A DNA stretch of 64,000 nt from Escherichia coli (lineage in GTDB: Bacteria; Pseudomonadota; Gammaproteobacteria; Enterobacterales; Enterobacteriaceae): the NCBI RefSeq assembly GCF_003334815.1, contig NZ_QOWO01000006.1. One strand, given 5' to 3'. The position numbers were made by a program, and so were the translations under genes. Under the pieces are notes generated by a model that was not told the origin of the DNA, did not search any database, and saw only the letters and a list, made by a program, of their open reading frames with translations. This document shows positions 41,907-44,489 of the stretch, in pieces (within the stretch, counting starts at the first letter, position 1; every line of letters starts with the position of its first letter).

Positions 41907-43196
41907 ATGACGCGCCGTGCTATCGGGGTGAGTGAAAGACCGCCACTTTTACAGACAATCCCGCTTAGTTTGCAACATTTGTTCGCCATGTTTGGTGCAA
42001 CCGTCCTGGTGCCCGTCTTATTTCATATTAACCCGGCGACTGTACTGTTATTTAACGGTATTGGAACGCTGCTGTATCTCTTCATCTGTAAAGGGAAAAT
42101 TCCGGCTTATCTTGGTTCCAGCTTTGCCTTTATTTCACCGGTATTGTTACTGTTGCCGTTAGGGTATGAAGTCGCGCTGGGCGGCTTTATTATGTGCGGC
42201 GTGCTGTTCTGCCTGGTTTCTTTTATCGTGAAGAAAGCGGGGACCGGCTGGCTGGACGTGCTGTTTCCACCTGCGGCAATGGGCGCAATCGTTGCCGTCA
42301 TCGGTCTGGAGCTGGCGGGCGTAGCTGCCGGTATGGCGGGTTTACTCCCGGCTGAAGGGCAAACGCCAGACTCCAAAACCATCATCATCTCTATTACCAC
42401 CCTGGCGGTCACGGTTTTAGGTTCCGTGCTGTTTCGTGGTTTCCTGGCAATTATCCCGATTTTAATTGGCGTGCTGGTGGGGTACGCGCTCTCTTTCGCA
42501 ATGGGAATTGTCGATACCACGCCGATTATTAATGCTCACTGGTTTGCGCTGCCAACCCTCTATACGCCGCGCTTCGAGTGGTTTGCCATTCTGACTATTC
42601 TGCCAGCGGCGTTAGTGGTTATTGCCGAACACGTAGGGCACCTGGTAGTAACGGCTAATATCGTCAAAAAAGATCTGCTGCGCGATCCAGGTCTGCACCG
42701 TTCGATGTTTGCTAATGGCTTGTCGACCGTGATTTCCGGCTTCTTTGGCTCTACGCCAAATACTACTTACGGAGAAAACATTGGCGTGATGGCGATCACC
42801 CGTGTTTACAGTACCTGGGTTATCGGCGGGGCGGCGATTTTCGCTATCCTGCTTTCCTGCGTCGGTAAACTGGCTGCCGCTATCCAGATGATCCCATTGC
42901 CGGTGATGGGCGGCGTTTCGCTGCTGCTTTATGGTGTCATCGGTGCTTCCGGTATTCGTGTTTTGATCGAATCGAAAGTGGATTACAACAAAGCACAGAA
43001 CCTGATCCTGACTTCCGTGATTTTGATCATCGGCGTCAGTGGCGCGAAGGTAAACATCGGTGCGGCGGAGTTAAAAGGTATGGCGCTGGCGACCATCGTC
43101 GGTATCGGCTTAAGTTTGATCTTCAAACTGATCAGTGTGCTGCGCCCTGAAGAAGTGGTGCTGGACGCAGAAGACGCGGATATAACAGACAAATAA
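41907..43196 (+). CDS. uraA: Uracil:H+ symporter (NCS2 family), 429 aa
   Basis: Track ORF 41865..43196; ATG 41907 with GAGGA SD ([16 protein letters not shown]); multi-TM. Confidence 0.95.
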
Positions 43197-43290
43197 TGTA
43201 CCGACCGGGCAGTGTTGCTGCCCGGTTCAAACATCATGGGATTCTGTGGTAAACTTCTCGCGATTTTGTGAAATCCTGGTTGAGGTATCT

Positions 43291-43992
43291 CTGAACACAC
43301 CGGCACAGCTCTCTTTGCCACTTTATCTTCCTGACGACGAAACCTTTGCAAGTTTCTGGCCGGGGGATAACTCCTCTTTACTGGCCGCGCTGCAAAACGT
43401 GCTGCGTCAGGAACATAGCGGTTACATCTATCTCTGGGCACGCGAAGGCGCGGGGCGCAGCCATCTGCTGCACGCGGCTTGCGCGGAATTGTCGCAGCGT
43501 GGCGATGCGGTGGGCTATGTCCCGCTGGATAAACGCACCTGGTTTGTTCCGGAAGTGCTCGACGGTATGGAGCATTTGTCGCTGGTCTGTATCGACAACA
43601 TTGAGTGTATTGCAGGCGATGAGTTGTGGGAGATGGCGATTTTCGATCTCTACAATCGAATTCTGGAATCGGGCAAAACACGGTTGTTGATCACCGGCGA
43701 TCGTCCACCGCGGCAGTTGAATCTGGGATTACCGGATCTCGCGTCGCGACTCGACTGGGGGCAGATCTACAAATTGCAGCCACTTTCTGATGAAGATAAG
43801 TTGCAGGCGCTACAGTTACGCGCGCGTTTGCGTGGTTTTGAACTGCCGGAAGATGTGGGGCGTTTCTTGCTGAAGCGGCTCGACAGAGAAATGCGCACGC
43901 TATTTATGACGTTGGATCAGTTGGATCGTGCGTCGATTACCGCGCAACGTAAGCTGACCATTCCGTTTGTGAAAGAAATTCTGAAGTTGTAG
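43291..43992 (+). CDS. hda: Hda, DnaA-inactivating AAA+ protein (RIDA), 233 aa from a CUG start
   Basis: Track ORF 43246..43992 (GTG); preferred start CTG 43291 with GAGGT SD 5 nt upstream, placing the clamp-binding motif QLSLPL at residues 6-11; AAA+ box motifs downstream. Confidence 0.8.
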
Positions 43993-44007
43993 ATAAGGTG
44001 TTTATTG

Positions 44008-44103
44008 TCGGATGCGGCGCGAACGCCTTATCCGAACTACGCGAAGTTAATCCATAGTATTCGTAGGCCGGATAAGACGTGGCAAGCGTCGCATCCGGCA
44101 ATG
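44008..44103. repeat. BIME: two inverted REP palindromes between hda and yfgD
   Basis: TCGGATGCGGCGCGAACGCCTTATCCGA and inverted GTAGGCCGGATAAGACGTGGCAAGCGTCGCATCCGGCA. Confidence 0.85.
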
Positions 44104-44129
44104 TGCTTCAACTAGCGATGGAGCACATC

Positions 44130-44489
44130 TTAACCCACGATTTCCAGTACCTGCTCCGGTGGACGACCAATCCGCGCTTTGCCATTCGCGACCACAATCG
44201 GGCGCTCCATCAGCTTCGGATTATCCACCATTGCCTGAATCAGCGCCTCTTCGCTAAGCGAACTGTCAGCCAGGTTCAGTTCTTTATAAAGATCCTCTTT
44301 CTGGCGCATCAATTCACGGGCGCTATTCATCCCCAGTATTTTCAGCAAATCGCGCAGCGTTGCCGCATCGGCGGGTGTCTCAAGGTAGAGCACCACTTCT
44401 GGCTCCACGCCGTTTTCTTTCAGCAGGTTCAGCGTTTCCCGGCTCTTTGAACAGCGTGGGTTATGGTAGATTTTTACCTGTTTGGTCAT
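44130..44489 (-). CDS. yfgD: ArsC/Spx-family thiol-disulfide protein YfgD, 119 aa
   Basis: Track ORF; N-terminal CSKSRETL motif typical of the ArsC family. Confidence 0.8.
   Translation of the reverse strand: MTKQVKIYHNPRCSKSRETLNLLKENGVEPEVVLYLETPADAATLRDLLKILGMNSARELMRQKEDLYKELNLADSSLSEEALIQAMVDNPKLMERPIVVANGKARIGRPPEQVLEIVG

Follow-up and report, generated by a model that had tools for sequence, protein, structure and literature searches.

Evidence from literature, curated annotation and comparative analysis that Escherichia coli hda is translated from a CUG codon fifteen codons inside its longest open reading frame

The window that we analysed, a 64,000-nucleotide stretch of an Escherichia coli contig (NZ_QOWO01000006.1), carries on its plus strand the 3′ part of upp, uraA, which ends at position 43196, and an open reading frame (ORF) that spans 43246..43992; arsC/yfgD and bepA lie on the minus strand downstream of this ORF. 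A 901-nt query matched all 5,426 complete E. coli genomes at 95–100% identity, and the annotation at every match was ‘hda: DnaA inactivator Hda’; from these matches we identify the locus as E. coli hda, located between uraA and arsC/yfgD. Indeed, several RefSeq genomes match the hda region of the window at 100% identity along all 901 nt, and the same gene context, with uraA upstream and arsC/yfgD downstream, is found in RefSeq, Yersinia, Erwinia, Dickeya and Pantoea. Compared to hda of E. coli K-12 (b2496), the window has the same gene with an identical 233-aa product and the same neighbours (uraA; yfgD/arsC and bepA), and we found no substantive difference, the window being that of another E. 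coli strain. In the intergenic region between hda and arsC/yfgD (44000–44134), weak sub-threshold Rfam matches to naRNA4 appeared on both strands, which fits REP/BIME-type palindromic repeats; besides these, the Rfam scan of 43100–44150 returned one chance 5.8S match and no match in the hda leader.

The hda coding sequence (CDS; 43291..43992, plus strand) consists of 233 codons and a TAG stop and encodes the DnaA regulatory inactivator Hda, an AAA+ protein. Within the regulatory inactivation of DnaA, which is the main brake on chromosome re-initiation in E. coli, Hda is the key factor. The exact 233-aa sequence is that of both UniProt HDA_ECOLI and RefSeq WP_001307333.1, and it aligns with PDB 5X06 chain E over 233 of 233 residues (100% identical, E = 8e-157); Pfam domains PF00308 (Bac_DnaA) and PF22688 (Hda_lid) are recorded for the 90% cluster to which the protein belongs. 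When residues are numbered from the CTG, the AAA+ motif residues G55, R56 and S57 (P-loop) and R153 are present in the window protein; the roles of G55/R56/S57 in the P-loop and of R153 as the Box VII arginine finger are those described by Kim et al. 2017 (PMC5397184).

The first-pass annotation of this DNA had proposed that hda initiates not at the first codon of its longest ORF, but at an internal CTG, and its coordinates can be read directly off the sequence. GTG 43246–43248 opens the longest ORF (43246..43992, 248 aa), and CTG 43291–43293 is codon 16 of this frame, and thus lies 15 codons inside it. We list this triplet (43291..43293, plus strand) as the CUG codon at which hda initiates, and which is decoded as fMet, on the basis of conservation, RefSeq CDS starts and literature. 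The Shine–Dalgarno (SD) sequence GAGGT (43282..43286, plus strand) is found 4 nt 5′ of the CTG; it had been placed 5 nt upstream, which is correct if one counts from its last base to the first base of the codon, but not as the number of intervening bases, which is 4 (ATCT). With the CTG as Met1, the protein has 233 aa (26.63 kDa) and the β-clamp-binding motif QLSLPL (43306..43323, plus strand) occupies residues 6–11, as had been claimed. The bare pattern GAGGTNNNNCTG (GAGGT-N4-CTG) occurs once in the 64-kb window, compared to 1.24 occurrences expected from shuffled sequences; we rejected this single-sequence pattern as evidence, since its frequency is that of chance, and used comparative data instead. 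Within the single sequence, the case rests on position and reading frame, and its strength comes from other genomes.

Initiation of Hda at CUG 43291 is a point on which literature, curated annotation, structure and comparative analysis all agree. According to EcoGene 3.0, the CTG start was demonstrated by Su'etsugu et al. 2008 (JBC 283:36118); the CUG start of hda is correct but already known, from 2008 and in reference annotations. Both the K-12 RefSeq entry and UniProt HDA_ECOLI, the curated entries with which a comparison had been suggested, use the 233-aa form, and the RefSeq hda of K-12 MG1655 (b2496, NP_416991.2) occupies 2618075..2618776 (702 nt, 233 codons). The statement in the first-pass annotation that the short CUG-initiated Hda of 233 aa is the experimentally determined form is thus borne out by EcoGene 3.0, by curated entries and by the numbering used in structural work. 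The further expectation that automated annotation would miss this start was half right. In three RefSeq genomes of different lineages annotated by PGAP, the CDS start was called at the base equivalent to 43291 (WP_001307333.1 in 3 of 3), but the 248-aa GTG form persists and is frequently met among gene calls from GenBank, Logan and ENA, where it is the representative of a cluster with 3,510 members.

Structural data follow the numbering from the CTG. The construct of PDB 5X06 chain E has a 20-residue tag and then M-NTPAQ..., and in the crystal structure of Hda with the β clamp (Kim et al. 2017, PMC5397184) the motif is numbered 6-QLSLPL-11 and is bound in the clamp cleft. The same paper gives 26.6 kDa for full-length Hda and residues 165–233 for the lid domain; the mass of 26.6 kDa, together with residues E17, W23, G55, R56, S57, N103, R153 and W156 as given there, fits the CTG numbering only. 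Within the literature that we searched on the hda CUG/CTG start, lists of non-canonical starts included, EcoGene 3.0 alone addressed the point; hda is not mentioned in the main text of the Ribo-RET preprint or of the PIRT-seq paper, and our literature search found no initiation-profiling or N-terminal proteomics data on hda.

We compared the hda loci of 80 species-level Enterobacteriaceae genomes (92–100% protein identity), which together with the window make 81 sequences. The codon aligned to 43291 is CTG in all 81, and it is CTG in 90 of 90 Enterobacterales loci when 9 loci from other families are included. Leucine codons are otherwise free to change in this gene: of the 31 codon columns that are always Leu in the 81 sequences, 30 vary synonymously, and the sole column without any nucleotide change is codon 1. 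Similarly, among all degenerate codons with an invariant amino acid, only 3 of 163 are invariant in nucleotide sequence. Therefore, as the sole invariant one among 31 Leu columns, the CTG is constrained as a nucleotide triplet, and not just as Leu.

The sequence around this codon is conserved in a characteristic manner. Positions −9 to −5 (GAGGT) are kept in 80–81 of the 81 sequences while positions −4 to −2 are freely variable, and GAGGT is at the identical offset in 80 of 81, the exception being a locus (L082) in which it is 1 nt further upstream. Third-position variation starts directly after the CTG, and in the alignment of the 81 sequences the SD block alone is conserved 5′ of it; the protein length counted from the CTG is 233 aa in every one. 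We read this alignment profile as the signature of an SD sequence and spacer, followed by a start codon that opens the coding sequence. The duplex predicted between the 3′ end of 16S rRNA and the mRNA before the CTG (−8.9 kcal/mol) is the best at any in-frame position from 43246 to 43327, compared to −4.3 kcal/mol before GTG 43246 and −1.7 kcal/mol before TTG 43315.

The relatives also bear on whether a canonical codon could serve. In 46 of the 81 Enterobacteriaceae sequences, the frame is closed upstream by an in-frame stop with no ATG, GTG or TTG between this stop and the CTG, and downstream, none of the 81 sequences has a canonical in-frame codon before residue 9, which puts the first such codon within or past the clamp motif. 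The codon at residue 9 is itself not conserved, being TTG in 43 sequences, CTG in 37 and TTA in 1. It is thus the relatives, and not the window with its available GTG, whose sequences indicate that no canonical start can yield the conserved N-terminus. The position of the clamp motif points the same way. In 125 diverse motif-bearing Hda homologues (about 40–63% identity), the Q of the motif has a median position of residue 5, and in 115 of the 125 it is found no later than residue 12; a GTG start would put this Q at residue 21, making the E. coli protein an outlier among these homologues.

To extend the comparison beyond the Enterobacteriaceae, we used nine distinct loci from five other Enterobacterales families, represented by Yersinia, Erwinia, Hafnia, Serratia (two species), Dickeya, Xenorhabdus, Proteus and Pantoea; for the Edwardsiella protein (P0043), the contig position was not located. 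The CTG is present in all nine loci, where it follows an almost invariant GAGGTGCTT and where the SD element is GAGGTG. The usual public annotation in Yersinia, Erwinia, Serratia, Hafnia, Dickeya, Xenorhabdus and Proteus is a 235-aa Hda, which begins ‘M[LI]’ at a GTG embedded in the SD element two codons upstream of the CTG; in the sister-genus loci (L083–L092) this GTG precedes the aligned CTG by about 6 nt, within GAGGTGCTT-CTG. In Serratia aquatilis (L093), the GTG close by is not in frame, an in-frame TGA is found 4 codons upstream of the CTG, and therefore the CTG alone can serve there; the NCBI record for this species calls a 233-aa protein. Because CTT-CTG is invariant, and because of the Serratia aquatilis case, the real start in the sister genera is probably the CTG too, in which case the 235-aa annotations are two residues too long. 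Two more distant homologues, with 63% and 52% identity, start at an ordinary GTG. On this evidence, initiation of hda at CUG seems to be characteristic of the Enterobacterales, with a sampling outside the order that is anecdotal at two homologues.

What, then, is the sequence between the GTG and the CTG? The apparent 15-codon N-terminal extension (43246..43290, plus strand) is most likely untranslated, consisting of promoter and 5′ leader. Across the 81 Enterobacteriaceae sequences, the frame remains open for between 4 and 56 codons before the CTG, canonical upstream candidates, where present, are scattered over 12 positions, and an in-frame GTG at codon −15 is found in only 8. The GTG overlaps an extended −10-like element, TGgTAAACT (43247..43255, plus strand), with the TG at 43247–48 and the hexamer TAAACT at 43250–55. 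The upstream alignment across loci contains a conserved block TCTGTG[GT]TAAACT, and the pattern TGnTA[AG]AnT is found 33–39 nt upstream of the CTG in 87 of 90 Enterobacterales loci, the other 3 having one-base variants of it; in the 64-kb window the same pattern has only 3 occurrences per strand. A similar TGTTACACT is seen upstream of the 52%-identical homologue (L097, 255–263). Our strict sigma-70 scan for two hexamers called no promoter upstream of hda, and our searches for literature or data on an hda promoter or transcription start site (TSS) found none.

We suggest, on the strength of this conservation, that the TGnTAAACT element is probably the hda promoter, with a predicted TSS probably at about 43261–43264, about 28 nt upstream of the CUG. 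If the element is the promoter, a TSS near 43261–43264 would leave GTG 43246 absent from the hda mRNA. The reading frame itself can be explained by spacing. In 44 loci the hexamer ends 36 nt before the CTG, and its TAA is there an in-frame stop; in E. coli the spacing from hexamer to CTG is 35 nt, 1 nt shorter, which moves the TAA out of frame, and therefore the ORF opens back to the GTG. The 15-codon extension is thus probably an accident of the 5′ leader. One locus labelled as Escherichia coli strain SCPM-O-B-8794 (L004) has one extra leader base about 15 nt 5′ of the CTG (AAATCCCTGG versus AAATCCTGG); with this base, the frame is closed by a stop 13 codons before the CTG and the 248-aa ORF is lost, and the Hda protein of this locus is 99% identical.

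Between uraA and this element, just past the uraA stop, is a G+C-rich hairpin (43203..43227, plus strand; −22.2 kcal/mol, z = −3.4), the stem of which is kept across genera in the alignment with both arms changed (CAG/CTG versus CGG/CCG). A simple terminator scan did not call this hairpin, which is terminator-like but without a clean U-tract, and its role may be that of a leaky terminator, or of a 3′ structure that stabilises the uraA mRNA. Control of the hda leader by structured RNA was considered and rejected, as the leader and start fold no better than shuffled sequences (z = +1.26); therefore, the weak start codon is in an open context.

We considered three other ways in which the start of Hda might be assigned. 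If GTG 43246 were the real start, E. coli would make a 248-aa Hda and the GAGGT and CTG would be coincidental features inside coding sequence. This GTG is a canonical codon with an ORF open in the window, it is preceded at a distance of 4 nt by a weak SD-like GGGA (−4.3 kcal/mol), the 248-aa form is found commonly among the records of GenBank, Logan and ENA, and bare GAGGT-N4-CTG occurs at chance frequency; nevertheless, we consider this start very improbable. The GTG at −15 is shared by 8 of 81 sequences, while 46 of 81 have a stop and no canonical start, and the 45-nt stretch contains indels whose lengths are not divisible by 3, also in the locus labelled E. coli (L004). Moreover, the GTG belongs to the conserved promoter-like TGnTAAACT, the CTG is invariant in nucleotide sequence unlike the 30 other always-Leu codons, and the short form has been adopted both in the literature and by curated databases. 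The starts nearest to the CTG are harder still to credit, and we regard them as having next to no chance of being correct. TTG 43315 (residue 9) is canonical and in frame, but initiation there would remove Q6–S8 of the clamp motif, which is bound in the cleft (Kim et al. 2017, PMC5397184), and the codon is TTG in 43 of 81 sequences and otherwise CTG or TTA, with an SD duplex of −1.7 kcal/mol. Upstream, CTG 43276 and ATC 43273 are near-cognate codons, but they lack an SD sequence (−3.7 kcal/mol) and are in poorly conserved columns.

Dual initiation is the alternative that takes up both codons: in E. coli, the CUG would yield the main 233-aa protein, and a minor 248-aa form would be made from GTG 43246 on mRNA that reads through from uraA. 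The frame is open in both E. coli and E. albertii, such that the sequence permits some initiation at the GTG, and as a start codon GUG is by itself far stronger than CUG (bioRxiv 10.1101/063800); similarly, a read-through mRNA that contains the GTG is plausible, given that the uraA hairpin has no clean U-tract and no terminator call. However, the SD before GTG 43246 is weak, the extension is conserved in few lineages only, such that any long isoform would lack a conserved function, and we found no report of two isoforms in the Hda literature searched. We hold a minor long form to be improbable. Thus, the reading that we prefer is that translation of hda starts at CUG 43291 and not at GTG 43246, to which we assign a probability of about 0.93.

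Under this preferred reading, initiation could proceed as follows. The GAGGT SD, 4 nt upstream of CUG 43291, would position the 30S subunit, and initiator fMet-tRNA would then pair with the CUG despite a mismatch at position 1. The initiator tRNA reads near-cognate codons and thereby yields an N-terminal Met. The product would be the 233-aa Hda with its clamp motif QLSLPL (6–11) near the free N-terminus, and the 15 codons from the GTG to the CTG would be noncoding, the GTG falling inside the promoter-like TGnTAAACT. In reporters, CUG initiation is about 1–2% of that of AUG (bioRxiv 10.1101/063800), and because of this low efficiency the weak CUG most plausibly serves to keep Hda scarce.

Two other E. 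coli chromosomal genes, infC (IF3) and pcnB, both AUU-initiated, resemble hda in having a near-cognate start that is read by the initiator tRNA, and differ from it in the position of the mismatch, which is position 3 in AUU and position 1 in the hda CUG. In infC, the weak AUU codon underlies IF3 autoregulation; in the literature searched, we found no infC-like regulatory loop for hda. The AUU of infC and pcnB has a low efficiency similar to that of the hda CUG, in the same class of 1–2% of AUG, and the ‘all 64 codons’ start-codon preprint from which this class is taken names infC and pcnB as the only E. coli genes whose non-canonical starts are confirmed (bioRxiv 10.1101/063800). This preprint omits the CTG starts of hda and yfjD that EcoGene 3.0 records. 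According to EcoGene 3.0, yfjD is the second gene with a confirmed CTG start in E. coli K-12; its CTG was predicted from conservation and inspection of the ribosome binding site and confirmed by start-codon mutagenesis, and the canonical start annotated earlier proved irrelevant. yfjD is an unrelated gene, and its mis-annotated start was downstream (TTG, codon 9), whereas that of hda is upstream (GTG, −15).

Since the hda start was settled in 2008 and is in reference annotations, locating it in this window does not add to the known biology. What remains useful is a caution on annotation, as 248-aa records persist and there is a probable over-extension by 2 codons in related families. The modest additions of our analysis are the invariance of the CUG across the order, the probable over-extension in sister families, and an account of the phantom extension as promoter and leader. 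The correct N-terminus of Hda matters, because the clamp motif must sit near a free N-terminus, and the structural work considered here uses the 233-aa form. We also raise a broader proposal, which is speculative and which we regard as rather unlikely: the CUG, the SD and the overlapping −10-like promoter might form a unit conserved throughout the order, in which selection would favour a weak start dependent on IF3 fidelity that couples the amount of Hda to the translation machinery, as in infC. If this were true, the level of Hda, and hence the rate at which DnaA-ATP is inactivated, would be tied to the state of the translation machinery.
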